From IMG/VR virus record IMGVR_UViG_3300042780_000007: a stretch of DNA of 56,503 nucleotides. One strand, given 5' to 3'. Position numbers and translations under genes: made by a program. Below the pieces are notes generated by a model. It saw only the letters and a program-made list of their open reading frames with translations, did no database searches and had not been told where the DNA came from. Positions 19,749 through 45,161 of the stretch are shown in pieces. Origin of the DNA: a virus. The first letter of the stretch is position 1. Each line of letters opens with the position of its first letter.

Positions 19749-19752
19749 ATTA

Positions 19753-22883: not shown

Positions 22884-23320
22884 TGTATCAACTCTGAAGT
22901 CTCATAGATGTTGCCAACAATGGTTAAATATTCTGTCTTCAGTTCTTCATCCTCTTGGTCGTATATTGGAATCCATTCTCTACCAGTAGGATGTATTAAT
23001 TCAGGGTATATTGGATATATTCCTGCACATCCATATCTCCATTCAACTATATATAAAAATGGTTTTATACTACCATTAACTTTTATGTGTCCTTCCCTAT
23101 CACCATATATTTTTTCAACAATATCCCCTTCGTAAATCTCCGTGCCATTCTTATCATAAAGTCCTGTAAACGGCATTAATGTCATTTTATGCAGCATTCG
23201 TTCTTGAACACAATGTGTATCATCACGTAGATAAACTGTATCTGTATGCCATTCAATTCCCACAACTGTCCACATCCCTTTCTCAATTGTATCCCATGCT
23301 CTAAACTTAATTTCTCTCAA
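22880..23320 (-). CDS. YopX-family protein
   Basis: REIKFRAWD...MPFTGLYDKNGTEIYEGDIV...IVGNIYE. Confidence 0.9.
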   Translation of the reverse strand: MREIKFRAWDTIEKGMWTVVGIEWHTDTVYLRDDTHCVQERMLHKMTLMPFTGLYDKNGTEIYEGDIVEKIYGDREGHIKVNGSIKPFLYIVEWRYGCAGIYPIYPELIHPTGREWIPIYDQEDEELKTEYLTIVGNIYETSELIQ

Positions 23321-23709
23321 ATCATCACCCCATAAGTTATATCAATCTCTTTTATATCATAAATTTTTATAAGTGTAGCATCATTAATATAATATTGTTC
23401 TTCAATCTGTTCTCGAAATATTGATGCAGCCTCGTGCATATTTGGGGCAACAATTGTCTTATCGAATTCTTCTGATATTACATTATACATCTTCAATTTG
23501 CGCCCTTTATGAGTAGCATCAGTATCTTTTGTTTTCTCATCTTTCTGCCTCTCAAGATATTTATCATACACATCATTACTCATACGACATACTTTCACAT
23601 CCCAGTCCATTGACTAAACCATATACCCATACTCTTTTACAAGATTCTGGATAAAATTATGTATCTTGCTGTCAATTTCTTTTGATTCATTTACTTTAAT
23701 ATTGCTCAT
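23317..23709 (-). CDS. Hypothetical protein with an in-frame TAG at codon 32 (130 aa if read through)
   Basis: GAGTGA RBS and ATG 23709; 31 codons, TAG at 23614-23616, then TCA ATG in frame with track ORF 23317-23610. Confidence 0.55.
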
Positions 23710-28244: not shown

Positions 28245-28253
28245 TTTATTTCC

Positions 28254-28418: not shown

Positions 28419-28419
28419 A

Positions 28420-29310: not shown

Positions 29311-29311
29311 C

Positions 29312-30547
29312 TTACATCACCGCTACGTATTTTGCGTTGTCGTTGAGTTCGATTTCACCATTCATTACTAATTCTTTCAGGGCATCTTTTACGGATTCAG
29401 TGTCGTATCCATTGCTGACTGCCTGTTTGACTGCTTCTTCACTGGAAATACCATCTTCTCCAGCGTACATTACGACTTTTACCATCAGGGAAGGTGTGGC
29501 AGTCTTGGTCTCCTGATCATCACCAATGTCGGCAACTTCTTCCTTGTCGTTGGATGCAATTTCTTCATCATCGGGCTGGTTATAATCGATTGCCTGATCA
29601 AAATCTTCCACATCTTCGGGGTTGTACTTGAATTCAGGTATTGCCCAGATTCCCATTGCGGTCATGGTTGGTCCATAATCTCCTTTGCCCTTCTTGGCAG
29701 AGGCAAATACTATGATTCTGGACATCTCACCAAAGTCAATTGGTGTGGATTCCGGTACAAAAACATTCTGTCCGTATTCGGTCTCATTGTCCAGTTTAAT
29801 TGTACGGGAGCCACCTGCATTAAGTTCCATGTCCACGGAAATTACATCGGCTTCCGTTATCAGGACATCTTTCTTGCCATGTGTTTCCACCCATTCGGGC
29901 AGTTTCTCAATCTCGATTTTGAGGTCTTTGAGATTCTTGTCCACGTATTCGTCAACCCTGATTTCGTCCCCATCAAGGATTTGCATCTTGGTGGACTTGG
30001 TACCATTCCAGACTCCATTCTTGCCAAGTTTACCATTGAGCCGGATTTGAGTAAACATTGGAATTTCCATATTCTTGGCTTGGTCTCCCTTGAGAATGAA
30101 AGTCGTAGGCTTCTTCTCCTGCAGGTCAACACCCCAGAGAATACGCATCCAATTTGGTTTCATTGGTTTACCAAAGTTACGATTTTCCATCGTTTTGTTG
30201 TAATCAAGAAATTTGTCCCTATCCAGTGGAGTTCCGGATTCGTCGGTATAACCTTCTGCAATAGCCTTCTGGGGGTTGGACTGGAACAATTTTATTGCGT
30301 CTTCCCTTGCGTTTGCACTGGAGTCAAATGCATCTTTCTGTCCGAAGACTAACATATCCAGGTTTTCGGTGGGAGCACCAATGGACTGTTTTTTGAATCC
30401 CAGCTGGAGCAGCCTCATTGCTCTTTTTTCGGCAGTTGGTTTTTCAAATCCCTTGCCGAGTTCGGTCTCAAGGTATTCATTGAATTTTGTCTGCGCTTCA
30501 TCTACACTTACGGAATATTGCTTTGCTAGTTCTTCTACGGTTGTCAT
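29312..30547 (-). CDS. Putative RPA-like ssDNA-binding protein
   Basis: OB-fold-like beta segments, acidic linker, wHTH-like end; next to the Sak4-like and Hjc genes. Confidence 0.55.
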   Translation of the reverse strand: MTTVEELAKQYSVSVDEAQTKFNEYLETELGKGFEKPTAEKRAMRLLQLGFKKQSIGAPTENLDMLVFGQKDAFDSSANAREDAIKLFQSNPQKAIAEGYTDESGTPLDRDKFLDYNKTMENRNFGKPMKPNWMRILWGVDLQEKKPTTFILKGDQAKNMEIPMFTQIRLNGKLGKNGVWNGTKSTKMQILDGDEIRVDEYVDKNLKDLKIEIEKLPEWVETHGKKDVLITEADVISVDMELNAGGSRTIKLDNETEYGQNVFVPESTPIDFGEMSRIIVFASAKKGKGDYGPTMTAMGIWAIPEFKYNPEDVEDFDQAIDYNQPDDEEIASNDKEEVADIGDDQETKTATPSLMVKVVMYAGEDGISSEEAVKQAVSNGYDTESVKDALKELVMNGEIELNDNAKYVAVM

Positions 30548-30590
30548 TTAATCACCTAAGTCACGTCGAGCCACGTGCTGTGACAGAAGG

Positions 30591-30983
30591 TTATCGGCTG
30601 TCACCCACGCTGCTTATATTGTTGGTCTCTTCATCCAGCAAACCGTCATCTTCACGGATAACCGGATAAAGCATTTGCATTACCTGCATAGGTAAGATTG
30701 TCCACACATTGCCTGTGGTATCGCCTTTGAATTGAAAGGCAAGCATCGGAATTTTGTCTTCACGCTTGGCTTCATAGATCATCTCATCAAGCCATTCCTT
30801 CTTAATCGTTATCTGTTTACCACCCTTGGAATCTTTTATGCCGGAGTATTTGACTTCGATATAAAGTTCGTCATGTAAGGTGTCAGAGGCGGTGTGCCTT
30901 GATGAGGAGCCAGAGAGGGGAGTTCTGAATGTACCAAATGTCTTGGCAATCCTACGCTCCAATTTTTTCCATGCTTTACTCAC
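30591..30983 (-). CDS. hjc: Archaeal-type Holliday junction resolvase
   Basis: WKKLERRIAK...PLSG...SD...YIEVK...EAK...PMLAF. Confidence 0.8.
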   Translation of the reverse strand: MSKAWKKLERRIAKTFGTFRTPLSGSSSRHTASDTLHDELYIEVKYSGIKDSKGGKQITIKKEWLDEMIYEAKREDKIPMLAFQFKGDTTGNVWTILPMQVMQMLYPVIREDDGLLDEETNNISSVGDSR

Positions 30984-31599
30984 TTAATGCCTCCTTCTCC
31001 TGGAGGAATCTGGCTTCCGGAGATTCCGGGCATTTTTCAGCGATCTGCTGATAAAGTTCCTTAATCTTTCTCTCCTGAAACTCGGTACGACATTCTTCGG
31101 GTACCTTTTCATAAGTGGATAGCATATTCCTTAAGACATCCGGACTTTCCACCATCTCATTAAAGGTCATGTCCTGTACCTGCTGGTACTGCATCTTGTT
31201 GTATTCAATGAGGGCTGTCTTGAGTTCATCTATGCGTCTGCGGTTCTGCTCTATCCGGTCTCCCTTGGTGTGCCTGTTTTCATTCAGGAGCTTAAGCCAC
31301 TCCTTCACGAAATCTATAGGCTCGCTGTTCTTCCGGATGTCATTGCTAACATGCTCCAGCAGGTCACGTAAAATGCTTGGACCAAGGATAAGGAATGCCT
31401 GTGATCCTCTACTCTTTATTCTGCCTCCACCAATTTCGTCTCTCAATTCATGGGCTTTGGCTTTGTTATCTGCCCTAATCCATGCAGAGGGAACTGGACT
31501 TGCCCTGCCTACATTAGAGGATTTGAACTTTGCATTATCAATAAGCTTCCTCCATTTGAGCATGAGCCGACCATCATCAAGTCTATCTTTTACTGTCAT
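30976..31599 (-). CDS. Hypothetical protein with a possible degenerate LAGLIDADG-like domain
   Basis: WIRADNKAKAHELRDEIGGGRI...LRDLLEHV pattern; no intact LAGLIDADG helix seen. Confidence 0.5.
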   Translation of the reverse strand: MTVKDRLDDGRLMLKWRKLIDNAKFKSSNVGRASPVPSAWIRADNKAKAHELRDEIGGGRIKSRGSQAFLILGPSILRDLLEHVSNDIRKNSEPIDFVKEWLKLLNENRHTKGDRIEQNRRRIDELKTALIEYNKMQYQQVQDMTFNEMVESPDVLRNMLSTYEKVPEECRTEFQERKIKELYQQIAEKCPESPEARFLQEKEALSE

Positions 31600-32258
31600 T
31601 TACCATACACTTCCTTCATGAACCCTTTACGGGCATCGCCCATTTTAAGTTGGACTAAATCCTGTTCGGTTCGTATATACTTTCTTGCTTTAATGTTTTC
31701 ACCCATCTTGTCAAAAATTCTCTGTTCGAATTCATTTTTCATATCGGTCATAGTTTGAGGCGGTTTGGTTCTCGCCTGTCTGTGTTCATAATAAACTACG
31801 CACCTTATATGAAACTCATTAAGAAGCTCTCTCAATTCAGTCAGGAAGGTATAAAGACTGATGTGCCTCTTCTTACAGAGTTCAGCCTCAACTTTTGTGG
31901 CGTAGGCAACATACCAGTTGCCATAACCTTTGACATCGAACTGGAAAGTCCTATGAAAATCATCTACTTGTGTAAGGATTGAAATATATTTGGAGAGAGT
32001 ACGCATTGAAATACTCCCTCCATAATTGTTCTCTGCCTTACTTATTATGCCGTACTCTTCCCGTAAAGCATCCGGAATATCACTCGTACATATTATCTTC
32101 TTGTTGAGGAGAAGATCATATAGTGCAGCCAGTGTTTCATAGTCCAGATGCCTTTTACGTTTAAAACTTTCAATCCGGTCAAGTTCTTCTTCAAGGTCAA
32201 TGGTCATCCTAATGACCAATGGATTCTCTTTCTTCTCGTTCATTGGTCTTAAAGACAT
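31596..32258 (-). CDS. Hypothetical protein, possible wHTH
   Basis: GAGGTG RBS; ISMRTLSKYISIL. Confidence 0.6.
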   Translation of the reverse strand: MSLRPMNEKKENPLVIRMTIDLEEELDRIESFKRKRHLDYETLAALYDLLLNKKIICTSDIPDALREEYGIISKAENNYGGSISMRTLSKYISILTQVDDFHRTFQFDVKGYGNWYVAYATKVEAELCKKRHISLYTFLTELRELLNEFHIRCVVYYEHRQARTKPPQTMTDMKNEFEQRIFDKMGENIKARKYIRTEQDLVQLKMGDARKGFMKEVYGK

Positions 32259-32267
32259 CTTTGCACC

Positions 32268-33317
32268 TCATTCTATCTTTACCTTGATATTCTTTTTAAT
32301 GTTTTCGTCCTCCACTTCGACGAATTTATCTTGCAACTGTTCCTTCTCCTGAATGTCCAGCATATCCGATGCTATGTGTTCCAGTGTGTCCTTTACTCCA
32401 TGGCTTGCATCATGAGAGGACACGGAAGTTATGGCGTTTATAATACCCCACAGGTTGTCGGCATGAGCCCCGTGCATCCTGTCGTTTATGCGCTTCTTGA
32501 CTTCCGTGGCTATTTTGCCAGACATCTTTTTCTCCAAGACGTAGTGATCTATCAAGTTGTTGGCTTCCTCTTTGGTAACAAGGATACTCTTTGCCCTGTC
32601 AATGCTTTCCAGTACGTTCCAAGCATTGTCTAATATTTCGCCTACCTTGATAGTAAACTCTTCCAAGAGTTCCTCTTTATTACCCAGATGAGTCTCTGTG
32701 ATGGATTCTTCTGTCTTGTAGGATACCATACCATTTTCGCATTCCAGTCTCTCAAAATAAAGGGAAACTGTTATGCTTCGTGTACCATATTCATTGTTCT
32801 TGATCTGCAATCCGGTAGAGATTATATCCCCGACCTCACCATCCGAAACATTGTCTTTGATAACGTATCGGGTAACATCATAACCTCTGGGATAGGTTGT
32901 CTTGTACCTCATGGAATCTACTTGAGTTACACCTTCCTGAATCATTATCTCTTCGGCATAGTGTTCCAGTTCTTCCATGTCGATAGGTACATAACTACTA
33001 CCAACAACAGACATGATATCTCCGGTATCCTTCAATCTCCTGAAGATAAGAGGATTATTGTCCTTCCTCATGTGCAGCATCTCAAGGAATTTGGCATTAG
33101 TATTTGGGCAAGCACCATCCTCTTCCATTTCCTTGTCAAAGATTGACTTATACGCTCCGGTCATTCTAAAAAGTTTGGTCACTGCAAATCCTTTGAGTTC
33201 AAGTGGTCCGTGTACAGTATCCAAAAGCATGTGGTTGTCTCCCACATACTTGGCATCTTCAATCTCGCTTCCCTTAATTTCTATATTTTCCCATTTAGTC
33301 TCCGGTGGATAATCCAT
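32268..33317 (-). CDS. DUF932-like protein
   Basis: SVVGSSYVPI...GLQIKNNEYGTRS...FERLECENGMV...LWGIINAIT. Confidence 0.75.
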   Translation of the reverse strand: MDYPPETKWENIEIKGSEIEDAKYVGDNHMLLDTVHGPLELKGFAVTKLFRMTGAYKSIFDKEMEEDGACPNTNAKFLEMLHMRKDNNPLIFRRLKDTGDIMSVVGSSYVPIDMEELEHYAEEIMIQEGVTQVDSMRYKTTYPRGYDVTRYVIKDNVSDGEVGDIISTGLQIKNNEYGTRSITVSLYFERLECENGMVSYKTEESITETHLGNKEELLEEFTIKVGEILDNAWNVLESIDRAKSILVTKEEANNLIDHYVLEKKMSGKIATEVKKRINDRMHGAHADNLWGIINAITSVSSHDASHGVKDTLEHIASDMLDIQEKEQLQDKFVEVEDENIKKNIKVKIE

Positions 33318-33322
33318 TGCTC

Positions 33323-33547
33323 TTACTCCTGTGGTTCTTCTTCGTAGCCTATTCCTAAGAAATACTTCATCATTGCTATAGCCAAGCCCAGAAAGCTAAA
33401 TAATATAACAATGAGTCCAATCACAAAGATCGGTGTAACTCCAATCCCTGCACCTATTATGCAAAGCACGACACCAAGCAAAAACATTGCCCAGCCCTGT
33501 ACCCACATTATTCTGGGGTCTGTTGACCTAAAGTTCGTGTAATCCAT
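33323..33547 (-). CDS. Small membrane protein with two transmembrane helices
   Basis: Almost entirely hydrophobic core. Confidence 0.7.
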   Translation of the reverse strand: MDYTNFRSTDPRIMWVQGWAMFLLGVVLCIIGAGIGVTPIFVIGLIVILFSFLGLAIAMMKYFLGIGYEEEPQE

Positions 33548-33548
33548 T

Positions 33549-34052
33549 TCATACCTCCGTTATTACTCTGTTACAGGCAGGACAAAGCACCACCGATGTT
33601 TCACCTTGTAGGGTAAACACCACGCACCTTACTTGAAGGAACTTTGGTATATTACCACAAAAGTGACATCTGTGGAAATCCTGTCTGAGCGGTTCTCGGA
33701 ATCTAAGGACACTAAGGGAATTGAAAGGTATCCCTACGGTTCCCTTATCATTCCTCACCACGGCAGGTATGGGTTTACTGGCTTCCCTGAAACGGTATAC
33801 CCCACGTTTGGAATCTGCATACTCGATCAGGTGGGCTTCCAAGGATTGCTCAACCAAAGCCTTACATTTTCTTCTAGTCTTATGGTAATCCTCACCAGAT
33901 TGCCTGCTGAAGAAGGTTGCCATCCTTGTCAAATTCCATCTGCGTGTTCCCATAACCAGCTTGAAATGCTTCAACATTTCGCTGCTGGTTAACGAAGATG
34001 AGGAGTAGTCCTCATCCACGTTTTTGTCCTCTCCATCACACATCAACATCAC
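33549..34052 (-). CDS. Putative wHTH plus Zn-finger protein
   Basis: C-terminal CHFC...CPAC. Confidence 0.55.
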   Translation of the reverse strand: MMLMCDGEDKNVDEDYSSSSLTSSEMLKHFKLVMGTRRWNLTRMATFFSRQSGEDYHKTRRKCKALVEQSLEAHLIEYADSKRGVYRFREASKPIPAVVRNDKGTVGIPFNSLSVLRFREPLRQDFHRCHFCGNIPKFLQVRCVVFTLQGETSVVLCPACNRVITEV

Positions 34053-34618
34053 TTATCGTCGCTACCCCTATACTTTAACTCTGCACCAAGTTCCCATAAT
34101 TCCTTGATGAGGGGGTGAGCATTGGTGCGTGTGCCAGTGTACCAGAGTTGATCTCCTTGATACTCCGGTTCCTTGCCCAATGCAAGTACAGATTTCAGGA
34201 AGACAGCTTCAATACATACCTTGTCTCCGGATTCATCAACACCTTCCCACCCAGCACCATTCCATGCTGTGGCTCCTGTTTTCTTGATGATTTTCTTTAT
34301 TTTGTTCTTGCTGTCGTGGTAGGTTCCTTCAGGGAGGAGGAAACCAATGGTAACCTCTTCCTCCCCTTCCTCCATAAGCGATTCGTACAACTGCTTTTCT
34401 TCTGCTGTCCTTTCAAACATATTCTCTTCCTCTTCTAGATTTTCCCATCTTATAGGAGCAGACAACCTGCCCCTTGCATGCCAATAATCATACTCTTCCT
34501 TTTCAAATGTCCGGTGACTCCCACATTTCGGGCAGTGGTACTGAAGGCGTTTAACCTCAATATACATGCCTTCCCAGCCACAGCCCACACAAATCACTGG
34601 TGTCTTACTGTTCGCCAT
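34049..34618 (-). CDS. Zn-ribbon-containing hypothetical protein
   Basis: CVGCG...CPKCGS. Confidence 0.65.
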   Translation of the reverse strand: MANSKTPVICVGCGWEGMYIEVKRLQYHCPKCGSHRTFEKEEYDYWHARGRLSAPIRWENLEEEENMFERTAEEKQLYESLMEEGEEEVTIGFLLPEGTYHDSKNKIKKIIKKTGATAWNGAGWEGVDESGDKVCIEAVFLKSVLALGKEPEYQGDQLWYTGTRTNAHPLIKELWELGAELKYRGSDDK

Positions 34619-34841
34619 CCATGTCTAGCCTCCTATTTTTATATGCTAGGACTGCCTGTTGAAGCACTTTGGAACTTTGAACGCATACTTCTGCACCAGC
34701 AGTCATAGCATCTATGTCTTCATTCTCCAGTTCCCGTTCAATGATATTGCAAAGTTGCCTAACTCTGGTAAGGTCTGCAATAACATTGCTTCTGCTTGCC
34801 GATACTGCCAATTCTCTCATTATCTTTTCTTGTTTGCTCAT
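34605..34841 (-). CDS. Helical hypothetical protein
   Basis: Start moved to ATG 34841 (ATGA overlap). Confidence 0.6.
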   Translation of the reverse strand: MSKQEKIMRELAVSASRSNVIADLTRVRQLCNIIERELENEDIDAMTAGAEVCVQSSKVLQQAVLAYKNRRLDMDGEQ

Positions 34842-35059
34842 ACAAATTCTCCCTGTTCCATCATTATTGTTTCCAGTAGTCCTTCTGAATCTATCGTAAA
34901 TTCCAGTCCACAGTCCGGACAGTAGAGCACGGATTCCATGCCCTCGTAAATCTCTGCCGGATCGTGGTTGAAGTATTGAACCTCTGCCATGCATTTTGGA
35001 CAGTACACCGGATATTCAATGTTTATTCTCTTACCGATTATTGCGTAGTCTGTTCCCAT
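34838..35059 (-). CDS. Zn-ribbon protein
   Basis: CPKC...CPDCG. Confidence 0.7.
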   Translation of the reverse strand: MGTDYAIIGKRINIEYPVYCPKCMAEVQYFNHDPAEIYEGMESVLYCPDCGLEFTIDSEGLLETIMMEQGEFV

Positions 35060-35060
35060 C

Positions 35061-35303
35061 TTATTCCTCCCTTAATGATTTAGCCATATCCTTTGAGGCT
35101 TCCTTTATATTATTGTCCTCAATTTCCTTTCTCAAGATATCAAGTTCCCTTCTTCTACCATTAAATGATCTGCGTACAAGTTCTCTGGTTTCTGGATAAA
35201 CTGATTCTATTGCTTTATTCTGTTCTCTATTGAGTGTTTTTATTCGAAAATCGATATAAGCAAGTACATCTTTTTTCTCCAGTAGTTGATCAAGTATTCC
35301 CAT
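35061..35303 (-). CDS. Hypothetical protein
   Basis: GGAGG RBS; 80 aa. Confidence 0.65.
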   Translation of the reverse strand: MGILDQLLEKKDVLAYIDFRIKTLNREQNKAIESVYPETRELVRRSFNGRRRELDILRKEIEDNNIKEASKDMAKSLREE

Positions 35304-35304
35304 C

Positions 35305-35610
35305 TTATTCCTCCTTGAGGTGGTATCCTCTCTTGTTTATTTCATCTTCCAGTTCGGAGATGTCTGCATCATCAAGGGCTTCTTGCAGGTCTTCGTAGCA
35401 GTTTATACTATCTCTCTGCACTACTTCATACAGGATTTCGTCATCATCTGCATCCAGTAAGGCATCCACACGGGCATAATAAACCTCGTCCTCGGTCATC
35501 TCTATTACTTCCCGTGCCTCTTCTCCATCAAGAGTGTCCTTAATTATCTCAAGTCCGTATTCGTCAATTGCCATTCTGATTACTTGCTTTGCAAAATCCT
35601 TTTCATACAT
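35305..35610 (-). CDS. Very acidic hypothetical protein
   Basis: GAGGT RBS; D/E-rich. Confidence 0.65.
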   Translation of the reverse strand: MYEKDFAKQVIRMAIDEYGLEIIKDTLDGEEAREVIEMTEDEVYYARVDALLDADDDEILYEVVQRDSINCYEDLQEALDDADISELEDEINKRGYHLKEE

Positions 35611-35658
35611 TATTCATACCTCGTGTCTTTGGTCTGCCTGTCCTAATAATCCTTGTCC

Positions 35659-35961
35659 TTATAAATCATTGCGCTTTGCCACTAGTTTATAATAACTGTT
35701 GTTCCTATCAATGTATTCCTTATTAAATGAAATACACCAACCCCTTTCTAAAAAAAGAAAGAAAAAATAAATTAGCATCTTTTTTATATTTTTTCTTTTC
35801 TTTTTTGTATTTGGTACTATTGCTATTATCTCATTATCTCCTGTTTCTACAATACTGAAACCTTTCTTTTGTAGTTTATCTTTCAAGTCCTCTGTAGTTC
35901 TGGTTCCCAAGGACAAGGGTTTCTGGCACCCTCGTCGTTCGGGCTGAAGGTTTGGGATCAA
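35659..35961 (-). CDS. Basic hypothetical protein
   Basis: TTG start after GGAGG. Confidence 0.55.
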   Translation of the reverse strand: MIPNLQPERRGCQKPLSLGTRTTEDLKDKLQKKGFSIVETGDNEIIAIVPNTKKKRKNIKKMLIYFFFLFLERGWCISFNKEYIDRNNSYYKLVAKRNDL

Positions 35962-36206
35962 TCATCTGCCTCCACGATGTCCACCATGAACATTGTTATT
36001 CTACGTGCCTCTTCCAATTTGTCGGTTTCCCTCTTGAATTCATTGACCTTCTAACCGATTGCCTTGTCTAGTTCCACGATAAATTCACGGGTGCTGTTTG
36101 TCCTCCGTGCTGTCTGTTCAATCAGCCAAGGCATGTGCTGGGATTGTGCTGTGGCTTCTCCAAGTACGGTATAGACCGATTCAAGATTAATGTTTGCTTT
36201 TGCCAT
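35958..36206 (-). CDS. Hypothetical protein with an in-frame TAG at codon 52 (82 aa if read through)
   Basis: AGGTGA RBS and ATG 36206; TAG at 36051-36053; read-through ends at TGA 35958, overlapping the next TTG start. Confidence 0.65.
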
Positions 36207-36210
36207 GATA

Positions 36211-37722
36211 TCACCTGTTGTTGAATGCTTCAAGTACCTCGTTCTTTGATCTTATAAACAAATTGTTCCAGTCGTTCCATTGTCTCCCCATCAAGCGCAA
36301 GACAAGTCCTTCCCTGCTGGCAAAGAGTTCATTGTGTTCGGAATACCAGCAGTGAGTATATTCATGGGCAGCCAGCATAAAAATTTCGATTCCGGTGGCT
36401 ATTTTGCCCTTTGTACTCTCCACGGCATTTGGATTGATAAGAAAAACTCTCTTGCTATCCTTCCTGAAGACTTTAGCGTTGCATTCTTTGTCAAAAGTAA
36501 ATCCAACACCGATTTCTACGTTCTGGTTGAATTCTTCTTCTATCTTGAGGATTATATTTGTCCAGTAGTGTAGGATGGTTTGAAGCTTCTTGGAATCTAT
36601 CTTCATCGGATAGTTCTTGGTGTCTTCCCTTCTTTCCACCATGAACTCGTATCCCATTGGTCCAATTTCATGCTTGCTTCCTTCCAGCATGTCACTAACC
36701 AGCTGTCCAAGTTCCGGAAAGGTGTCGGATACTTGTTCTTCCACGGCTTTATAGTTAGTTATTCCGCTTGTGGTGTTCTGTGCTGTGATGGCTTCAATAA
36801 AGTCCTTCTTATGGTCTGTTACCTCCGGATGATGAAACTCATTCAGTTTGTCCATCACATTCAGTCCGGCAAAGGTGTCAATTACCATCTGCGGTTTCTT
36901 CTCCGTGGCTGATCTGGGATCAACGATCATCTCGTTTATCTTTTCATCCAGTTTAGACCTGAATGGATAGACAAGATTATCCCTGTTGGCAGCAAGGAAA
37001 TTGACGGACTCGCCCTTGAGTTCCACATAAACCGTGGACTCCAAGTTCGGCATCATTCTCCAGAACATGGGAATGCCACGGAGCCTCACGACCATTTTGC
37101 TACTCTCAAAATTCTTGTCCACTATGAAATCCGCAAGCTCACTGCTCTTGAGAGTACCTTTGACCTTCTCGCATTTGACCTCTTCTCCATCAAGGCAAAT
37201 TGTTGCCTCTGTGGAAAGGAAAGATAAAAAGTGTTCAACTTTGTATTTCCAGAAGCCAGCGTCATAAATAGAGCCTTCTTCGTACAAATTGATTGATATC
37301 TCGGTGCCAGTCTTGCATTCAGTCTCAATGCACCTAATTGGTTCCTTGCCAATCATTTCGTTGTTTATCTCATACAACGTCGTTCCGTCTTGAGAAGATT
37401 TAATCGACCATAGACTCCATGCAAAGAAAAGGATTTCCTTTGCCTTGCCGAATCCGCCAACGGAACCTTCCTTCTTCTGGGAACCACCAAGCACAAGTAA
37501 CTTGTCACGAATAATGTTTGCATTCATTCCGCAGCCATCATCCACGACAGTTATCGTGTTGGCTTCCTTATCAATATCAATGCTTACCTAACTGGCTCCA
37601 GCATCCAGACTGTTCTGAATCGCTTCACGAATCCAGACCGTTGGTAGATCGTTTGAATAATCTGCTCTGGCATTCCTGCGGAAATAATCGGCACCTATAA
37701 CAATATTTGCTACTTCTTCCAT
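36211..37722 (-). CDS. GHKL (Hsp90/MORC/rIIA-like) ATPase with C-terminal HExxH motif and an in-frame TAG at codon 45
   Basis: GGAGG RBS and ATG 37722; REAIQNSLDAGAS*VSIDID...VVDDGCGM...GGFGKAK...GTEI; C-terminal HEYTH...H. Confidence 0.85.
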
Positions 37723-37741
37723 TATAAACCTCCTTTAAATC

Positions 37742-37764
37742 CCAAAAGAAGACATCTCTTTTGG
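37742..37764. other. Intergenic stem-loop (8 bp stem)
   Basis: CCAAAAGA-N7-TCTTTTGG just upstream of the GHKL gene RBS. Confidence 0.5.
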
Positions 37765-37860
37765 TCTGCTTGTCGCATCCTTATGCTGTGTCCAGTCCAT
37801 GCTCTCGATGTCAAGGGAGTCGCTCTCTTTGGCTCCCTTGGCTATCTCCGGCTGGCTGTC

Positions 37861-38538
37861 TTACTCTTCTGGTGGATAGTCGTACTCGAACCTATCCATG
37901 GATTCTGCAACTGCCTCGTCAAATTTATCGTTGTTGGCATTCTTGCGGAGTTTGGGGAAGGCTACAGTAATTATCGCTGTTTTGACTTTGCCAAAGTCTT
38001 CTCCAAATTTGGACTCTCCCATGAAGACTGGTGCGATTCCCTTGATAAAGATGTCTTCAAGGTAGTTGGTCACCTGTTCCAGTTTGTCTTCTGGAAATTC
38101 TGCTTCCTCAAGGTATTCCCTGACCTCCGTGTCAAGGTCTGCGAAAGAATCCTTGTCCTCGGATTCTTCCAGTTCTTCTGCCTTGGGTTCCCTTTTCAGT
38201 TCCTTGGTTTCCTTCTCTGCCTTAACTGCCGTGGTCTGTGTTTCCACCCTTGCCACCGTAGGCTCACTGAAAGGAGTTGGGAACACATCGTGGAGTTTGA
38301 CTGGCTCTCCATTTTCATCAAGATAATGCTTCTCCTCTGATCTGATATGTCTGCGAATGTTCTGTGTGGAGCACCCGAAATGCTTGGCAATGAGTCTGTA
38401 ACCCCATGCCTTGGGTTCTTCCATCTTGTTCTCTTTTCTGTCGTAGTAGTTGAGTTCATGCCTGCCAACATAAAGGTCAACTACTTCCTTGTGGTTGATA
38501 CCGATATGTCCAGATTTTGTGGTCTGCTCGTTTGTCAT
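37861..38538 (-). CDS. HTH-domain protein with acidic C-terminus
   Basis: WGYRLIAKHFGCSTQNIRRHI. Confidence 0.8.
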   Translation of the reverse strand: MTNEQTTKSGHIGINHKEVVDLYVGRHELNYYDRKENKMEEPKAWGYRLIAKHFGCSTQNIRRHIRSEEKHYLDENGEPVKLHDVFPTPFSEPTVARVETQTTAVKAEKETKELKREPKAEELEESEDKDSFADLDTEVREYLEEAEFPEDKLEQVTNYLEDIFIKGIAPVFMGESKFGEDFGKVKTAIITVAFPKLRKNANNDKFDEAVAESMDRFEYDYPPEE

Positions 38539-38568
38539 ACTCGTTCCTCCAATTCACTAAAGAATCAC

Positions 38569-38742
38569 TTAGAAACTCACCTGAATTTCTACTTCATCCG
38601 GAACCTTGTCCTCAAAGGCAGTCTTCCTGATGTAAAGTTGCCCGATGATCTCATCTTCACCCTTCACGGGCACTTCAGAGAATCTCACGGTATTCTTGGT
38701 TTCCTTGTTCTGTACGAAAGTCCTTGTGGTAGTATTTCCCAT
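38569..38742 (-). CDS. Hypothetical protein, 57 aa (not in the ORF track)
   Basis: AGGTGAG RBS; MGNTTTRTFVQNKETKNTVRFSEVP...IGQLYIRK. Confidence 0.7.
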   Translation of the reverse strand: MGNTTTRTFVQNKETKNTVRFSEVPVKGEDEIIGQLYIRKTAFEDKVPDEVEIQVSF

Positions 38743-38780
38743 TTTCTCTCACCTTTGCGTTTATTCAGACGTTTATCTGT

Positions 38781-38831
38781 CCTGACTGATACCAGTCAGG
38801 ATTCCAGTAAACGGAGGGAGGAATCTCCCTC
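38781..38831. promoter_or_regulatory. Two adjacent perfect hairpins
   Basis: CCTGACTG-ATAC-CAGTCAGG (38781-38800) and GAGGGAG-GAAT-CTCCCTC (38814-38831). Confidence 0.5.
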
Positions 38832-39018
38832 ACAAATACGATATCGGAATCGTTGAACCGCATCCATAAACATTCTTACTTGCTAACTAATCCTCCATGC
38901 ATTCCTTACATGAATCGCAATCAACTCCGATATGCCCTTCAGGTGCCCCACAATCCTTACAAGCGTAGCACTTCCGCACTGCATAACATTGCAATTTATA
39001 AGGGCAAGGTTTATGCAA
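38830..39018 (-). CDS. Cys-rich small protein with an in-frame TAG at codon 44 (43 aa if stopped, 62 aa if read through)
   Basis: GGAGTGA RBS and TTG start; CPY...C...CYACKDC...CDSCKEC; TAG at 38887-38889; next stop TGA at 38830. Confidence 0.55.
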
Positions 39019-39148
39019 CCGAATCACTCCTTAACTTTCTTAAGATTGCTGGGAGATCATCCCCATCGGGGAGCTCACGATTGAAGACTTCATCCTCTAC
39101 GTCATGATCAACTTTCTTGCGCCTGTGTGGGGATAACCCTTGCCTCAT
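39011..39148 (-). CDS. Hypothetical protein, 45 aa (not in the ORF track)
   Basis: ATGA overlap with upstream gene; MRQGLSPHRRKKVDHD... Confidence 0.5.
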   Translation of the reverse strand: MRQGLSPHRRKKVDHDVEDEVFNRELPDGDDLPAILRKLRSDSVA

Positions 39149-39426
39149 TGTTTTCTTCTCCTTGCTGTTAGTGAAATTATCTTGGAATCAAAGACATTAT
39201 TGGTTGAACATTCGACACGCCAGCCTTGCTCTCGCATTTTCTTGGCAAGGAAATTCCTGATTCTTTGATTCTTTTTGTGTTCATCGTACTCCTTGGAAAC
39301 CCATGATCCGATCACGATATCGAATTCATTCACGACCTCCGATGGATAAAGTCGTCCGGTGGCATTTGCGTTGCCACCTTCCTCCTCAATAACATCCTCC
39401 CACCATTCCTTATCCTTGTATTCCAT
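39145..39426 (-). CDS. Hypothetical protein
   Basis: Start moved to ATG 39426 after GGAGGAGTGA. Confidence 0.65.
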   Translation of the reverse strand: MEYKDKEWWEDVIEEEGGNANATGRLYPSEVVNEFDIVIGSWVSKEYDEHKKNQRIRNFLAKKMREQGWRVECSTNNVFDSKIISLTARRRKQ

Positions 39427-39431
39427 ATGAA

Positions 39432-39875
39432 TCACTCCTCCAGTAATCCGTGATTCCCACGAATTTCGTATGTTGATTTGCCAAATTTGCGTGCCCACTT
39501 AAATATCTGGTCTGCGCAATCCGGTTTATTTATATCGTCCTTTATGCAATGAATGCTGTCAGAATCAAATGGCTCGTCAAAAGGAATGCATGCTGTATCA
39601 ATTCCGCATTCCTCAACCAGATCGTATAAATCCTCACTGCGTATCTCATCAAGCGTCATTGCCCTGCCTATCAAGTCTGCCCATGCAACTTGGGCAATCT
39701 CGTCATACACGGAGTAACCCACGAATTGAAACTTGACCTCCGACATTTCAATAAAAGTTGGCTCATGGCAGATGCCCACATCGACATCATCACCATTATG
39801 CAAACGGAATCTCAAAATGTGTGTGGCAACTTCGTCATATCGATAATACCCACGATCCTTGTCCTCGTTATTCAT
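39432..39875 (-). CDS. Acidic hypothetical protein
   Basis: GGAGG RBS; 147 aa. Confidence 0.7.
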   Translation of the reverse strand: MNNEDKDRGYYRYDEVATHILRFRLHNGDDVDVGICHEPTFIEMSEVKFQFVGYSVYDEIAQVAWADLIGRAMTLDEIRSEDLYDLVEECGIDTACIPFDEPFDSDSIHCIKDDINKPDCADQIFKWARKFGKSTYEIRGNHGLLEE

Positions 39876-40024
39876 TATGCATCCTCCATTATAATCTCGA
39901 CTACGGTTTCACCAACATCGCCTGCTGGATCATTCTCATCACGGGTGAACACACGAATTTGTTTCACGCCTACAAGGGAATCCTTGTTCAGGTTAAATTC
40001 ATCATGCTTGTCGCTGAAAGTCAC
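39875..40024 (-). CDS. Small hypothetical protein, start uncertain
   Basis: Open frame ending in a TAATG overlap with 39875. GTG at 40024; the frame stays open to about 40087, with ATC 40069 downstream of AGGAG. Confidence 0.45.
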   Translation of the reverse strand: MTFSDKHDEFNLNKDSLVGVKQIRVFTRDENDPAGDVGETVVEIIMEDA

Positions 40025-40111
40025 GTGCTTGGTGACTTGCCTAACTGTAAATTGACGTTTCTCTCCGATAGTTTCACGCTCCTGTTGTTAATTTCACGGT
40101 TGCTTCACGCT

Positions 40112-40189
40112 TCACTTCACGCCTGCGATTTCACGCAATCGTGAAGGACGTCCGAATGCGCAACCACACGCATCCGGATTCCGTCCCAT
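40112..40189 (-). CDS. Micro-ORF, 25 aa
   Basis: Preceded by GAGGACAAGGATTC; MGRNPDACGCAFGRPSRLREIAGVK. Confidence 0.3.
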   Translation of the reverse strand: MGRNPDACGCAFGRPSRLREIAGVK

Positions 40190-40254
40190 GAATCCTTGTC
40201 CTCGTGAATGAATGGGGTCAGATCAAACTGCCCCACCATTCGACTCATTCTGAG

Positions 40255-40413
40255 TCAAATGAATTCATCCCTGTGGGATGAATACCAATCGTCCCGACGA
40301 TATTCTGACCTCACGTGACCAGAATCCATGACGAATCCCATGGCGCCATTTTTCTGAATGAATGTGCGCACAATTCTGCTATTGTCGCTGCAATGCTTGG
40401 CTGCTGGTTTCAT
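40255..40413 (-). CDS. Micro-ORF, 52 aa
   Basis: GGGAGG RBS; ATGA overlap with the upstream micro-ORF. Confidence 0.5.
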   Translation of the reverse strand: MKPAAKHCSDNSRIVRTFIQKNGAMGFVMDSGHVRSEYRRDDWYSSHRDEFI

Positions 40414-40460
40414 AACTGAACCTCCCAGTTCAGCCAGTTTGAATTCACAAATTCAAACAT
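40410..40460 (-). CDS. Micro-ORF, 16 aa
   Basis: GGTGAGG RBS; MFEFVNSNWLNWEVQL. Confidence 0.35.
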   Translation of the reverse strand: MFEFVNSNWLNWEVQL

Positions 40461-40552
40461 AACTGATCCTCACCAAATTCGACATTCCTGACAGTGGTTC
40501 CAAACCGATTCAGGAACAATTCATGTGCATTGTCGTGGATGTTGAGTTGCAT
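40445..40552 (-). CDS. Micro-ORF, 35 aa
   Basis: GGAG RBS; MQLNIHDNAHELFLNRFG... Confidence 0.45.
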   Translation of the reverse strand: MQLNIHDNAHELFLNRFGTTVRNVEFGEDQLCLNL

Positions 40553-40585
40553 TTCAATCGCTCCAAAAAAGTGAATTGGTTGGGC

Positions 40586-40924
40586 TCATTGCCCAACCTG
40601 TGACTCCAATTCAGCAATACGCTGCTTGAGCAATTCCTCCTTGGATGGCTCATGTATTGCATCATCAATGATATCCTTGAGTTGCATTGCGACCAATTCA
40701 CCCACGAATTCCTCTGGGGTTGGTTGCAATTGCGCTGCTGACTTGACTGACTTGGATCGCTTGAGGTCACGTGGCGCCGGTTCCTTGATTCCCAACCTCA
40801 CCAGCCAGCGTCGTGCATTCTCTCTGCTGCATTCCAATTCCTTGGCAACCCCAGTCACAGATTGCCTCACGTCCCATGCGTTACGAACCGATTGCTCGTT
40901 AATTCCTTTATGGTTGCTGCTCAT
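40586..40924 (-). CDS. HTH-domain protein; first gene of the leftward arm
   Basis: SVTGVAKELECSRENARRWLVRLGI; C-terminal coiled coil. Confidence 0.75.
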   Translation of the reverse strand: MSSNHKGINEQSVRNAWDVRQSVTGVAKELECSRENARRWLVRLGIKEPAPRDLKRSKSVKSAAQLQPTPEEFVGELVAMQLKDIIDDAIHEPSKEELLKQRIAELESQVGQ

Positions 40925-41210
40925 GCTTGATTCACGTCCTGCCATGGATGGGAGCGGGTTGCGCTGATCCGGAACCGAACCGGAACCGAACCAGCATGCC
41001 GCTCATGCCCCGACTCCATGAGTCGTGGCTTGGGCGATCCGTTCGAACCGCCCCATCCCTCGGCAATCAACCCGATGAGGTGGGCGCTCGTGCTGTGATC
41101 GCTATCGGGCACCATCGGCAATGGCTTGCTGGTGCTATGCGATGGCGGCAGAGGTCGGTGGCGGGGTTGAATCGGCATCGGAATCCGATGTCCGGTGGGG
41201 TTTGCTAGAG

Positions 41211-42150
41211 GAAATAAGAATCTGATTGCCGATATTCGTCGTTTGTGAAACCGGAAAAATAATTCTAATTGAGTACAAAAAAGGGGAAACACTTGTTTGA
41301 TTTTACAAATGTAGTCAGCAATTTAATTCCGACATAATAAGAAACCGGAATCTGATTGCTGTTTGTATTTTCGTAAACCAAATAAAAGAATTAGTTAACT
41401 AGTAAACCGGAAATTAAAAAATAATTAACTAGTAAACCAGAAAAAGGTTGCCGATTTACGAGCAGTCAAATATCGGAAACCGATTGCCGAAAATATGAAA
41501 ATGAGTTGGTAATACATATGAAATATTATATAGATTAGGTACTTCGTAATAATGAGTTTATAGGGCGTATGAAATATTCTATAAATTAGGTACTTAGTGG
41601 TAATTATTTTGATTCTCATTCTAAGTGAGAACATACACAATACATCAAATCTTACAAAAAACAAAACCTTCTTATTTATGAAGTGTCTTATTATACATAA
41701 TTATCAAGGACAAGGAATTAGAGCATATTATGCTGAAAATATGAGTACACACCCATCAATCGATTTAATCAAGTGTTATGCGTTTGATGGGGATGATCTA
41801 TGTGGGTTATTTACGGTTAAATAGATAGGATAGCATAATTCCTTCAACAACAATTAAACATGCAAATGCTACACCTATTAATGGATTATTTGGATCATAT
41901 TTCAATTCAGAGAATTGAAATAAAAATAATGCTTGTATTATTTTATATATCATGTAAAATACTAAATCTCATGAAATCCCATGAAATACAATATAATATG
42001 ACCCCATATAATCCCACATGGCACCAATAAATATGGCACCAATAAATACTACACGATATTTTATTAGGTACCCAAGGGTATTTCCTATTACCAGCATATG
42101 TCCAGAAAGATTAACTCAAAGTACGTACGTAAAAATAATTTATAAGGACA
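41211..42150. repeat. AT-rich divergent intergenic region with several direct repeats
   Basis: TTAACTAGTAAACC(G/A)GAAA x2 (about 41396 and 41426); 27-bp repeat at 41518 and 41569; ATGGCACCAATAAAT x2 at 42018-42047; several AAACCG-like copies. Confidence 0.7.
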
Positions 42151-42156
42151 TGGAAT

Positions 42157-42303
42157 ATGACGATAGCACTTGAAGACTTAAAAATGGAAGAGATTGAATT
42201 ATGGTTTGACTCCCTTGATGGGGATGAAAGACAGGAAGTGATTGATTATGCAAAAGGAATGAAACCACCAATAGATATGGTACTTGAAAAGGTGAATCAA
42301 TGA
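42157..42303 (+). CDS. Acidic protein, 48 aa (not in the ORF track); first gene of the rightward arm
   Basis: Preceded by TTTATAAGGACATGGAAT; ATGA overlap with the next gene. Confidence 0.6.
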   Translation: MTIALEDLKMEEIELWFDSLDGDERQEVIDYAKGMKPPIDMVLEKVNQ

Positions 42304-42515
42304 CACAGTATATAAGTGATAATGCCAGAGAATGGTTATATGAAGTCAAAAATTGGTTAAAAGAACAGGGGATACAAAAGTTTGCATACTGTGAATTACC
42401 ATCTCATCTAAAAAATTATAAGAATTTTAGAAAGGCTGCAGTTTCATCATTGATAAATAAAGATAGTAGAAAATATGTGAATAACTCATGGACTTGTATC
42501 TGGAGGATAAATTGA
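42300..42515 (+). CDS. Small basic protein, possible DNA-binding
   Basis: Overlapping start and stop; similar in pattern to the next ORF (W...V..W......KYF...LP.HL.N.K). Confidence 0.6.
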   Translation: MTQYISDNAREWLYEVKNWLKEQGIQKFAYCELPSHLKNYKNFRKAAVSSLINKDSRKYVNNSWTCIWRIN

Positions 42516-42796
42516 TGACCAAGATACCTACATATGATTTATTATGCTGGATACATAAGGTAGATAAATGGATGCAGAAAAATGATCTGAAATATTTTAT
42601 GACCTATGCACTGCCCGAACATTTGTATAATAAGAAGTATGCAATGTCTGCATCACAACAGGAATTGATTGAAAAATATGGTAGAGTACCACTTAATGGT
42701 AATAATGTAAAACAATGGATGATACCGCCAGAAACTAAATTAAAGGTTAAAAGGAGAGTATTAGGTGTTACCAAAGCCAAGGAACTTGCTTGTTAA
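42515..42796 (+). CDS. Small basic protein, apparent paralogue of the preceding ORF
   Basis: TGATG overlap after GGAGG. Confidence 0.6.
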   Translation: MTKIPTYDLLCWIHKVDKWMQKNDLKYFMTYALPEHLYNKKYAMSASQQELIEKYGRVPLNGNNVKQWMIPPETKLKVKRRVLGVTKAKELAC

Positions 42797-42868
42797 AATA
42801 CTATTAATGTATGTAATACTATACATGATTGCTCTCTTTATTGTAGGGGTTGTTGCGGTGAGGTAAAT

Positions 42869-43153
42869 ATGGAATTATATGATATATTAAAAAATAAATT
42901 TTGGAATTGTATGGATTACATAATGCTGAGCTCCTTACGCAGGGTTTACTCTATTTCCTTTGATTGTAAATGCATGTGTAATGATGTTGATTTTGAAAAG
43001 AAATGGAGATTGTATAATGATCAGGAAGTTTACAGATGCCCGAAGTGCGGAACCATTATAAGGTGTGGATTTACGTTATACAACAGAAAAAGAGCGAGAA
43101 AAATCAAAGACAACGACATTTACGAGGATATGGAATATGACAGAAATGGGTGA
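42869..43153 (+). CDS. Zn-ribbon-containing protein
   Basis: GGTGAGG RBS; CKCMC...YRCPKCG. Confidence 0.65.
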   Translation: MELYDILKNKFWNCMDYIMLSSLRRVYSISFDCKCMCNDVDFEKKWRLYNDQEVYRCPKCGTIIRCGFTLYNRKRARKIKDNDIYEDMEYDRNG

Positions 43154-43358
43154 ATACCTTGGATATGAGTATGAAGTGTATTACGATGCTATTGGTGAGG
43201 ATAAGAAGGTACAACACACTCTGACAGTTTACATAGATCATCAACATTATATAACCATGCCCAAAGCCAGTGGTAAGTGGAGTATAAGTGAAATCAAGCA
43301 AAAAATTCAAAAAATATCTGACATGATGACCCCTAATAGTTACAAGTCAGTTCAATGA
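43146..43358 (+). CDS. Hypothetical protein
   Basis: Start moved to ATG 43146. Confidence 0.55.
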   Translation: MGEYLGYEYEVYYDAIGEDKKVQHTLTVYIDHQHYITMPKASGKWSISEIKQKIQKISDMMTPNSYKSVQ

Positions 43359-43391
43359 CAAGACTGGGTATTGAAGGTGATATAGTACCTA

Positions 43392-43562
43392 ATGGGGAGT
43401 GCGAGACACTCTTCAGGTGGTACTTATATACAAAGTAAAACAATGAAAGATGCGATAAAAGGTTCCGATGCCATTATACTTACGAATGAAGATGCCCACA
43501 TTCAAATGCTCCGTAGAATGATGCATGGTGGTGCCGGAACTTTTTGCCTTTGCCATGATTGA
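43392..43562 (+). CDS. Hypothetical protein, 56 aa (not in the ORF track)
   Basis: AGGTGA upstream; the stop runs into a TGAGGG hairpin. Confidence 0.4.
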   Translation: MGSARHSSGGTYIQSKTMKDAIKGSDAIILTNEDAHIQMLRRMMHGGAGTFCLCHD

Positions 43563-43598
43563 GGGTGAAATCCCCTCATTTTATTAGGAGGAATTTAT

Positions 43599-44351
43599 AT
43601 AACAACACCAGTAAGAACATTTCACTGCAAGACAGGAAATATAGATAAGATACATGAAGAAATGGTAAAGACTATCCTGAATGAAGGCGAAGATATCACC
43701 TTCGGGGATGCAGAAGAAAAGAAGTATGCACGAAACATTTATGGTGTACTCATATTGGAAAGACCAGCCATTGTAAAAGCCATAGATAAAACTCCCAAAA
43801 TATATCCATGGGGAGGTAAGAAGGCTCAAGTATTCAGAGATGAATTCCTTGCGGAATGTAGAAAACTGGAAGTGAGCAAACAGGGATTTGACTACACATA
43901 TCCAGACCTGTTGAAATGTTTCCATGCCAAAAATTCCGAATATGGAATGAATCAATTTTATGTATCTCTTGATAAATTGAGAGAGGATATAAAAACTGGC
44001 ATCAGTAGCAACAGGAACATTGGTGTACTCTATAATCCTTGTACCATGTATAAAATGAAGAATCTACCCTGTTTCAATGAATTTCAGGTAGTGTATGAGG
44101 GTGATGCGAAAGGTTCTCTAAGATTGACCTTCCGCTCTCATGACTGGGGAACTGCAGTGTGGGCAAATATAATGTCTATTGCTAATGCTTTCAATGAATT
44201 GGTGTTCAAGCCAGCAGACTGCAAACTTAATAATATTATTATTAATTCTTATTCTGCTCACATATATAAAAATGATATGGGGTATTATGAAAAGATGTTG
44301 AATTCCAAAACTGCAAAATACTTCCATGGGTTATCAAAGGCGGTACAATGA
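43599..44351 (+). CDS. thyA: Archaeal-type thymidylate synthase (probable ATA start; first ATG at 43662)
   Basis: GFDYTY, NQF, LPCF (catalytic Cys), FRSHD, WAN, SAHIY. Confidence 0.85.
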   Translation: MTTPVRTFHCKTGNIDKIHEEMVKTILNEGEDITFGDAEEKKYARNIYGVLILERPAIVKAIDKTPKIYPWGGKKAQVFRDEFLAECRKLEVSKQGFDYTYPDLLKCFHAKNSEYGMNQFYVSLDKLREDIKTGISSNRNIGVLYNPCTMYKMKNLPCFNEFQVVYEGDAKGSLRLTFRSHDWGTAVWANIMSIANAFNELVFKPADCKLNNIIINSYSAHIYKNDMGYYEKMLNSKTAKYFHGLSKAVQ

Positions 44352-44662
44352 ATAGATTATTACACGAAAAAGTGATTGAAGATACCGTAACACTCCGGAG
44401 TACGGAAGAGCATGAAAGAGCCGTACACGAAGAAACTTCTGAACTTTCCATGACCATTGCTCATCATGCCCGTGGAAGAACTACTCTTGGTGAAGTCATG
44501 AAAGAAGTGGCAGATGTAATTCTTGCATGTGAAGTCTTTCTGGCTGCTAATAATATAGATCAGGAAAGTTTCGACCTTGTAATGAATGATGAATTGAAAC
44601 GCATGGATATGAAAAATAAATCACTCAAAGTCCAGAAATCAGGACCTACCTTTTCTGATTGA
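44348..44662 (+). CDS. MazG-like nucleotide pyrophosphohydrolase
   Basis: EETSEL...EVADV acidic metal-binding pattern; ATGA overlap with thyA. Confidence 0.75.
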   Translation: MNRLLHEKVIEDTVTLRSTEEHERAVHEETSELSMTIAHHARGRTTLGEVMKEVADVILACEVFLAANNIDQESFDLVMNDELKRMDMKNKSLKVQKSGPTFSD

Positions 44663-44741
44663 TGATGTCGTGTGAGCAGGGAGATATAGTTGGAGTGTCA
44701 GCCGGAAACTGTGGTTCTACCTACAGGCAATCTGCACGCTC

Positions 44742-44793
44742 GGAGGATGGTTCTATTCTCCCCACCCCCAATCTCTCACCAAAACCATCCTCC
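44742..44793. ncRNA. Candidate structured RNA or stem-loop
   Basis: Perfect 11-bp stem GGAGGATGGTT/AACCATCCTCC with a 30-nt C/T-rich loop. Confidence 0.35.
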
Positions 44794-44815
44794 ACATTTC
44801 CCATGGAGATCAAAA

Positions 44816-45121
44816 ATGAAAGTAACTGTAATGCCCAATAAAGACATGGTATATTTTTCGGCTAGATTAGCTTTACGTGGACAAGGAGTCACTCATCTGG
44901 CTGAAGAAAAGTTGAGTGCTGAAGAAATAATTTTCAGAAAGATTGAAGAGAATAAAGTAGGTAGAAGTATTGCCTATCCTCTTATATATAATAAGAAAGT
45001 CAAACGTCAGCATGGACTTTTGAAAAACAAGCGTCTTTGTCAATTCATGGAAACTGTAAACGAATCCAATAAATGGATTGCCCAAGACTCCGGTGATAAG
45101 ATAATCCTTATCCCCCAATAA
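44816..45121 (+). CDS. Basic hypothetical protein
   Basis: Start moved to ATG 44816 after GGAG. Confidence 0.6.
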   Translation: MKVTVMPNKDMVYFSARLALRGQGVTHLAEEKLSAEEIIFRKIEENKVGRSIAYPLIYNKKVKRQHGLLKNKRLCQFMETVNESNKWIAQDSGDKIILIPQ

Positions 45122-45161
45122 TCTTTGTTATTTCTGTTTTACTTATACTTATTCTTTTTAT

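Follow-up and report, generated by a model that had tools for sequence, protein, structure and literature searches.

To our knowledge, pyrrolysine (Pyl) is the only established TAG-decoding system in archaea. Published descriptions of Pyl decoding, among them the proposal of an archaeal Code 34, concern cells (10.1101/2024.09.30.615893). Code 34, in which TAG means Pyl genome-wide, was proposed for Methanosarcina, Methanohalophilus, Methanohalobium, Methanococcoides and other genera (Kivenson et al., 10.1101/2024.09.30.615893). In M. acetivorans, UAG has two readings, stop and Pyl (PMC12626013). The balance between them follows pyl gene expression and the charging of tRNA-Pyl, both of which rise on methylamines, as reported by Shalvarjian et al. 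and Britt et al. Among viruses, the recoded phages include those with code 15 (TAG = Gln) and code 4 (TGA = Trp) (PMC9523058). A 2026 survey of 3708 archaeal viruses found none that departs from code 11, the criterion being a large gain in coding density (PMC13465236); sparse TAG use of the kind described here would be missed by that criterion. Viruses are not mentioned in the Code 34 paper (10.1101/2024.09.30.615893), and our literature search found no published report of Pyl decoding or Pyl dependence in a virus.

The DNA analysed here is a single stretch of 56,503 nt (the window; IMG/VR record IMGVR_UViG_3300042780_000007). Its last 127 nt (56377-56503) exactly repeat positions 1-127, which identifies it as a complete, circularly assembled virus genome of about 56.4 kb. 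The virus comes from oil-field samples and encodes a terminase, portal, capsid, PolB and NrdD. No tRNA gene (ARAGORN) and no Rfam match was found in the complete genome. The virus is unable to suppress TAG by itself.

The ATPase gene is on the minus strand (36211..37722) and extends from ATG 37722 to TGA 36213-36211 (503 codons). Its sole in-frame stop is a TAG at 37590-37588 (codon 45). The frame around the amber codon reads WIREAIQNSLDAGAS-TAG-VSIDIDKEANTITVVDDGCGM, and 458 open codons follow before the TGA. A Shine-Dalgarno-like AAGGAGG (37735-37729, minus strand) is found 6 nt before the start codon (37722-37720). The N-box E33-x3-N37-x2-D40 (37603..37626, minus strand), with the catalytic Glu and the Mg-binding Asn, is upstream of the TAG. 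The G1 box D61-D-G63-C-G65-M66 (37525..37542, minus strand) is downstream of it, and the two halves of the ATP site are therefore on opposite sides of codon 45. The code-11 ORF from GTG 37545 (codon 60, 444 aa) has neither E33 nor N37; since the N-box comes before the TAG and the G1 box after it, this ORF lacks the catalytic half of the ATP site. A preliminary description, made from the letters of the window, had reported the ribosome binding site and ATG 37722 followed by an in-frame TAG, placed this TAG between the N-box and the G1 box of a GHKL fold and noted that the ORF starting at 37545 lacks the catalytic Glu and Asn. All three statements hold after re-reading of the sequence and comparison with the Pfam match and the 233-member alignment described below. 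A full-length ATPase product is possible only if the ribosome reads through the UAG at codon 45.

The Pfam family HATPase_c_3 matches residues 31-115, across the TAG, with 37.3 bits (cut-off 25). Exhaustive searching with HMMER gave 1517 relatives, of which the full-length members are approximately 490-510 aa and begin at query residues 1-10, i.e., within ten residues of ATG 37722. The nearest relatives outside this virus species show 38-45% identity over 98-100% of the query and are uninterrupted at the TAG position. A search of a protein database of 5.8 billion clusters found no version of this virus's ATPase with a sense codon at position 45. Among 233 aligned relatives, E33, N37 and D40 are each conserved in 232 and Q36 in 231. 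R32, E33, Q36, N37 and D40 of the N-box are essentially invariant and all precede the TAG, while D61, G63, G65 and M66 of the G1 box all follow it. The Gly-rich G2-like lid G89-F-G-K-A-K-E (GGFGKAKE motif), also downstream, is invariant in the family alignment (A1). The alignment column at the TAG holds polar residues and is variable (E in 43, N in 39, K in 35, R in 34 and Q in 15 of the 233 relatives). The preliminary description had proposed a homologue alignment at this loop with Lys, Gln or a variable residue as the expected outcome, and the column agrees with it.

The N-box stretch aligns with the ATP-binding motif of MutL. In the HMMER alignment to E. coli MutL (1b63_A) the TAG is opposite an Arg within the motif NSLDAGATRIDIDI. 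In the AlphaFold model (pLDDT 84.5) residue 45 opens strand 45-51 (beta-1), directly after the N-box helix (residues 26-40). The best Foldseek matches of the model are Hsp90/TRAP1 (E = 1e-14). An N-box of the form ExxxNxxD, a G1 box and a G2 lid, a profile score above the cut-off and a matching fold are the features by which GHKL (Bergerat-fold) proteins are recognized, and all are found here. Near the C-terminus there is an HExxH motif (H453, E454 and H457; 36352..36366, minus strand) followed by H463 and E465 (HExxH...H.E). Of these residues, E454 and H463 do not vary in alignment A1, and H453, H457 and E465 are almost invariant there. Relatives give weak matches to WLM or YgjP-like metallopeptidases, and the top PHROG matches of the ATPase are families of 'unknown function'. 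We describe the protein as a predicted Hsp90/MutL-like ATPase with a middle domain and a zincin-like HExxH domain fused at the C-terminus. It resembles the GHKL ATPases MutL, Hsp90 and MORC in its N-box, G1 box, G2-like motif and Hsp90-like N-terminal and middle fold. It differs from them in belonging to a viral family of about 500 aa with a C-terminal HExxH zincin-like domain. No orthologue was detected in 284 Methanosarcinales genomes with the A1 profile, where the matches were limited to the N-terminal ATP motif of cellular GHKL proteins, and a blastn search of the ATPase locus against 50,697 phage records gave no match. The sole IMG/VR match of the ATPase proved to be a short unrelated GHKL motif. 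One contig (L002; P0020, 444 aa) was considered as a second truncated homologue and rejected, the protein being cut off by the contig end.

The TAG at codon 45 is genuine. It is fixed in the population, essential motifs lie on either side of it, and purifying selection acts on the gene. The codon is unchanged in 11 of 11 aligned whole-gene variants including the window, among which 20 other codons vary. Two further contigs also carry it, so that all 13 sequence variants, the window among them, agree; they come from separate metagenomes. In four further oil-field or subsurface runs (Logan contigs from different studies, 2020-2025) the site is covered at a depth of 11 to 166 with no variant there. 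The split into 44 + 444 or 438 aa is annotated on JGI, NCBI (GCA_003940385.1), ENA and Logan contigs. No paper mentioning the NCBI accession of the split-gene contig was found, and none of the listed sequencing runs holding the sequence is an RNA run. We attach practically no probability to an error of sequencing or assembly, since independent JGI, NCBI, ENA and Logan assemblies from at least 15 samples all show the same codon. Polymorphism in the gene amounts to 14 synonymous and 6 non-synonymous changes (omega ~0.11, P = 2e-6 against neutrality). None of the 13 variants has a further stop or an indel; with the omega of 0.11, this is not the pattern of a recent pseudogene. Taken together, these observations exclude an assembly error and are strong evidence against a pseudogene in decay. 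The preliminary description had called the remaining 458 codons intact with no sign of decay, and had named relaxed selection as one observation that would speak against its reading; the variants bear out the former, and the latter was not observed.

A TAG that is simply a tolerated nonsense mutation is nevertheless to be considered. Translation would stop at codon 45, and either the 444- or 438-aa remainder would be made by re-initiation at GTG 37545 or ATG 37527 (codon 60 or 66) as a non-ATPase working, for example, through its HExxH domain, or the gene would be dispensable and not yet decayed. The gene callers do annotate 44 + 444 or 438 aa. Over the part that was compared, the sampled strains share at least 97% identity, which implies that little time has passed. 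Upstream of the TAG there are just two synonymous and two amino acid changes (R16K, and N6D in the ENA contig L137), too few to demonstrate selection on the first 44 codons alone, and purifying selection is measurable only downstream of the TAG. The invariant Met66 codon (ATG 37527) also sits in the apical loop of a predicted hairpin described below. On the other hand, neither GTG 37545 nor ATG 37527 is preceded by a Shine-Dalgarno sequence. A product starting at residue 60 or 66 would lack helix 26-40 and strands 45-51 and 56-61 of the Bergerat fold, together with every N-box residue that is invariant in the 233 relatives. The upstream 44 codons retain the ribosome binding site, the ATG and all invariant residues. 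For a dispensable gene an omega of 0.11 would not be expected, and in no strain is the gene lost or further damaged. We consider a tolerated nonsense mutation unlikely.

The host was approached through the structural genes. Of the 50,697 phage records searched, those with capsid and portal matches are all archaeal tailed viruses (Haloarcula viruses HVTV-1, HCTV-1 and HCTV-5, plus metagenomic methanogen viruses), and the present virus belongs to this group. Scanning IMG/VR with the capsid yielded fragments alone, in numbers too small for a family-wide comparison of TAG usage. Capsid relatives with 45-46% identity are present in two of 284 Methanosarcinales genomes, both of them Methanosarcinaceae bins, and in none of 401 sampled Halobacteriota. 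Both capsid-matching bin contigs also carry matching terminase, portal and scaffold genes. In one of the two bins (G075, Methanolobus-like) PylS scores 380 bits and a tRNA-Pyl-like sequence is present; the pylT region of this bin shows 81% identity to Methanolobus loci. On the viral contig of this PylS-bearing bin 2 of 34 stops are TAG. In the other bin (G168) PylS was not found, and 15 of the 66 stops on its viral contig are TAG. This sharp contrast in TAG stops is suggestive, although it comes from no more than two bins. The related viral contigs are C48 in G075 (L101/L102) and C189 in G168 (L103-L105). Contig c75 also has candidate internal TAGs, e.g., at codon 137 of 16012-16701. A CRISPR-spacer search of window positions 1-20000 and 28001-46000 (about two thirds of the genome) against 177 Methanosarcinaceae genomes, with two candidates per genome scored, gave no spacer-like match, which at this depth does not speak for absence. 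Methanosarcinaceae are common in oil-field brines. From the two related viral contigs, which place it at the family level, we infer that the host is most likely a Pyl-decoding Methanosarcinaceae methanogen.

TAG is rarely used as a terminator in the window. Greedy gene calling gave 47-48 genes with TGA, 40-41 with TAA and 2 with TAG as the stop. About 89 genes end in TGA or TAA. Of all stop trinucleotides, 17.5% are TAG. One of the two TAG-ended calls (15829-16128, plus strand) is spurious and lies inside a longer minus-strand ORF. Only four RBS-led frames end in TAG (37588, 36051, 23614 and 38887). If the three sites outside the ATPase gene are also read through, TAG has essentially no role as a terminator here (P < 1e-3, even when the baseline is set at 10%). 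If all four are real stops, the count is 4 of about 91, which is not significantly below the 4 of 42 genes of the closest syntenic relative, and genome-wide TAG avoidance is only modest. A similar TAG stop share, about 5%, is reported for Methanosarcina (PMC13663744). That closest relative (L140; ENA ERZ23498485 scaffold_113, 55.1 kb, GC 34%) is at roughly the genus/family level, with a terminase of about 71-73% aa identity; TAG ends 4 of its 42 genes. Its ATPase gene is uninterrupted, encodes 501 aa and has GAA (Glu) at the aligned codon. In a Methanomassiliicoccales-linked virus 7 of 45 stops are TAG, which indicates that TAG avoidance is no general rule for viruses of Pyl-using orders.

The other three TAG sites have no homology support on both sides, and the ATPase TAG is the only one in the genome that has it; the preliminary description had singled this gene out as the strongest single case for TAG as a sense codon, and among the four frames it is. 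The small gene directly downstream of the ATPase gene (35958..36206, minus strand) has a TAG at 36053-36051. Read-through here would extend the gene by 30 codons, up to a TGA overlapping the start of the next one; the read-through product has no homologues, and no strain polymorphism was found in 36300-35600. The second site is in 23317..23709 (minus strand), where a 31-codon frame from an ATG ends at TAG 23616-23614 and is continued in frame by a 97-aa ORF. This TAG and its upstream codons are identical in ENA contig L137, and homologues of the product are called as the 93-97 aa downstream part only. The C-terminal third of the 97-aa protein is locally divergent between the two (L137:19900-20001 against window 23317-23450; about 89% aa identity overall), which in the otherwise near-identical L137 suggests a mosaic exchange. 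The third is a Cys-rich mini-ORF (38830..39027, minus strand) that ends at TAG 38889-38887, inside a 166-bp insertion (38861-39026) absent from many strains (L005-L009 region compared). Where the insertion is present, a 45-aa gene is cut short and the Cys-rich mini-ORF is gained. The read-through tail, GSTIPISYL and a stop, is the normal C-terminus of a 50-aa protein in deletion-form strains. Read-through of the four RBS-led frames ends 4 nt into the next gene, ends before the next gene or gives an in-frame fusion. Category 4 of the Code 34 scheme comprises TAGs whose read-through gives an out-of-frame overlap longer than 60 nt; genomes of that kind should have few or none of them, as is the case in the window.

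In-frame TAG together with avoidance of TAG terminators resembles the recoded phages (PMC9523058), and a phage-style code 15, in which a suppressor tRNA reads TAG as Gln as in crAss-like and other gut phages, was also weighed. The likeness to code 15 and code 4 phages is that genes are not fully readable with code 11. The recoded phages (PMC9523058) differ in that they encode suppressor tRNAs, have recoding in many late genes and depart from the code of their host. Here the complete genome has no tRNA, hence no virus-encoded suppressor tRNA(CUA), and there is no TAG enrichment in late genes. In-frame TAGs are missing from the terminase, portal, capsid and tail genes; the one to four candidate sites of the genome all fall in the leftward non-structural arm. 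Moreover, the hallmark genes are of archaeal-virus type, and no code 15 was found in the survey of 3708 archaeal viruses (PMC13465236). We regard code 15 as very improbable. The virus appears to follow the genetic code of its host.

MFE folding predicts an 87-nt hairpin (37481..37567, minus strand) that starts 20 nt 3' of the TAG. Its MFE is -35.9 kcal/mol compared with -25.7 +/- 3.1 for shuffled sequences (z = -3.3), none of 200 shuffles being as stable, and it is in the top 2% of 1946 genome windows. A strain SNP at 37522 converts a G.U pair of the hairpin to G-C. No comparable 3' structure was found at the other TAG sites; near 38889 the fold is made up of terminator-like hairpins beyond the next TGA. 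Across the genome, the 116-nt RNA folds of highest stability (-44 to -57 kcal/mol, GC 0.5-0.66) cluster at 40000-41250, a GC-rich stretch between the divergent gene arms. PYLIS elements are not needed for Pyl insertion. The hairpin may act like a PYLIS element and favor read-through, or may be a chance structure.

Stable 3' hairpins occur at some viral read-through sites, and the hairpin could also serve a leaky TAG in a host that does not use Pyl. There, a near-cognate tRNA (Gln, Lys, Tyr or Trp) would read the codon at low frequency and hold a potentially toxic ATPase at a very low level. Position 45 accepts almost any polar residue and the host is placed only at the family level, both of which would suit such a leaky stop. 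It leaves the genome-wide rarity of TAG terminators unexplained, however, and the relatives of the virus sit in Methanosarcinaceae bins, one of them with PylS. We know of no near-cognate read-through system of this kind in archaea. We find such a leaky stop improbable.

The reading that we favor, and consider probable, is that the Pyl machinery of the host decodes the TAG at codon 45, presumably incompletely; host, inserted residue and read-through efficiency are all inferred. The gene would encode a working viral GHKL ATPase, its UAG being read in a Pyl-decoding Methanosarcinaceae host. The host Pyl-tRNA(CUA) would insert Pyl at position 45, which is predicted to be exposed and is variable in the family. 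Pyrrolysine is a long lysine derivative, and it should be tolerated at a position that is often Lys, Arg or Glu in homologues. Two products would be made, a 44-aa stub and the full-length Pyl45 protein, in a ratio set by the Pyl-tRNA supply of the host. Both are probable, since UAG is ambiguous in the best-studied hosts of this kind. The preliminary description had called TAG a sense codon. The intact, selected gene and the uninterrupted homologues support that the codon is read, but in M. acetivorans UAG serves as both stop and Pyl, and the word 'sense' may overstate the case.

Category 1 genes of Code 34 have an internal TAG with more than 30% identity on both sides and an extension of more than 15 aa (10.1101/2024.09.30.615893). 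The viral ATPase shows 38-45% identity and a 458-aa extension, far beyond 15 aa, with homology on both sides of the internal TAG. TAG is rare as a terminator and there is no large out-of-frame read-through overlap, again as in Category 1 genes, and the putative Pyl position is non-conserved, as neutral drift predicts. The differences are that the gene is viral and that the virus has neither pyl genes nor a tRNA. RdmS of M. acetivorans (PMC12626013) is comparable as a non-methyltransferase with an ATPase domain and a single internal UAG, for which long and short forms are expected. RdmS is, unlike the viral protein, a cellular sensor kinase with the TAG in a PAS domain (PMC12626013). The 44-aa short form of the viral ATPase cannot function, the TAG being inside the ATP-binding fold itself.

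We also entertain, as a doubtful extension of the Pyl reading, that amber codon and hairpin together form a translational gate by which full-length ATPase is made only when host Pyl-tRNA is abundant, as during growth on methylamines. If so, an early or accessory viral function would be tied to the metabolic state of the methanogen host, and this would be the first virus known to use the machinery of the 22nd amino acid as a regulatory input. The GHKL-HExxH family, with about 1,500 members, is itself uncharacterised. Standard annotation splits or truncates genes of this kind, and every public call of the present one is 44 + 444 or 438 aa. If the viral gene needs host Pyl-tRNA, the TAG pattern would be a host-prediction marker among methanogen viruses, and the gene would be a natural reporter of UAG read-through in methanogens. 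It would also raise the question of whether the genetic code may limit the host range of such viruses.
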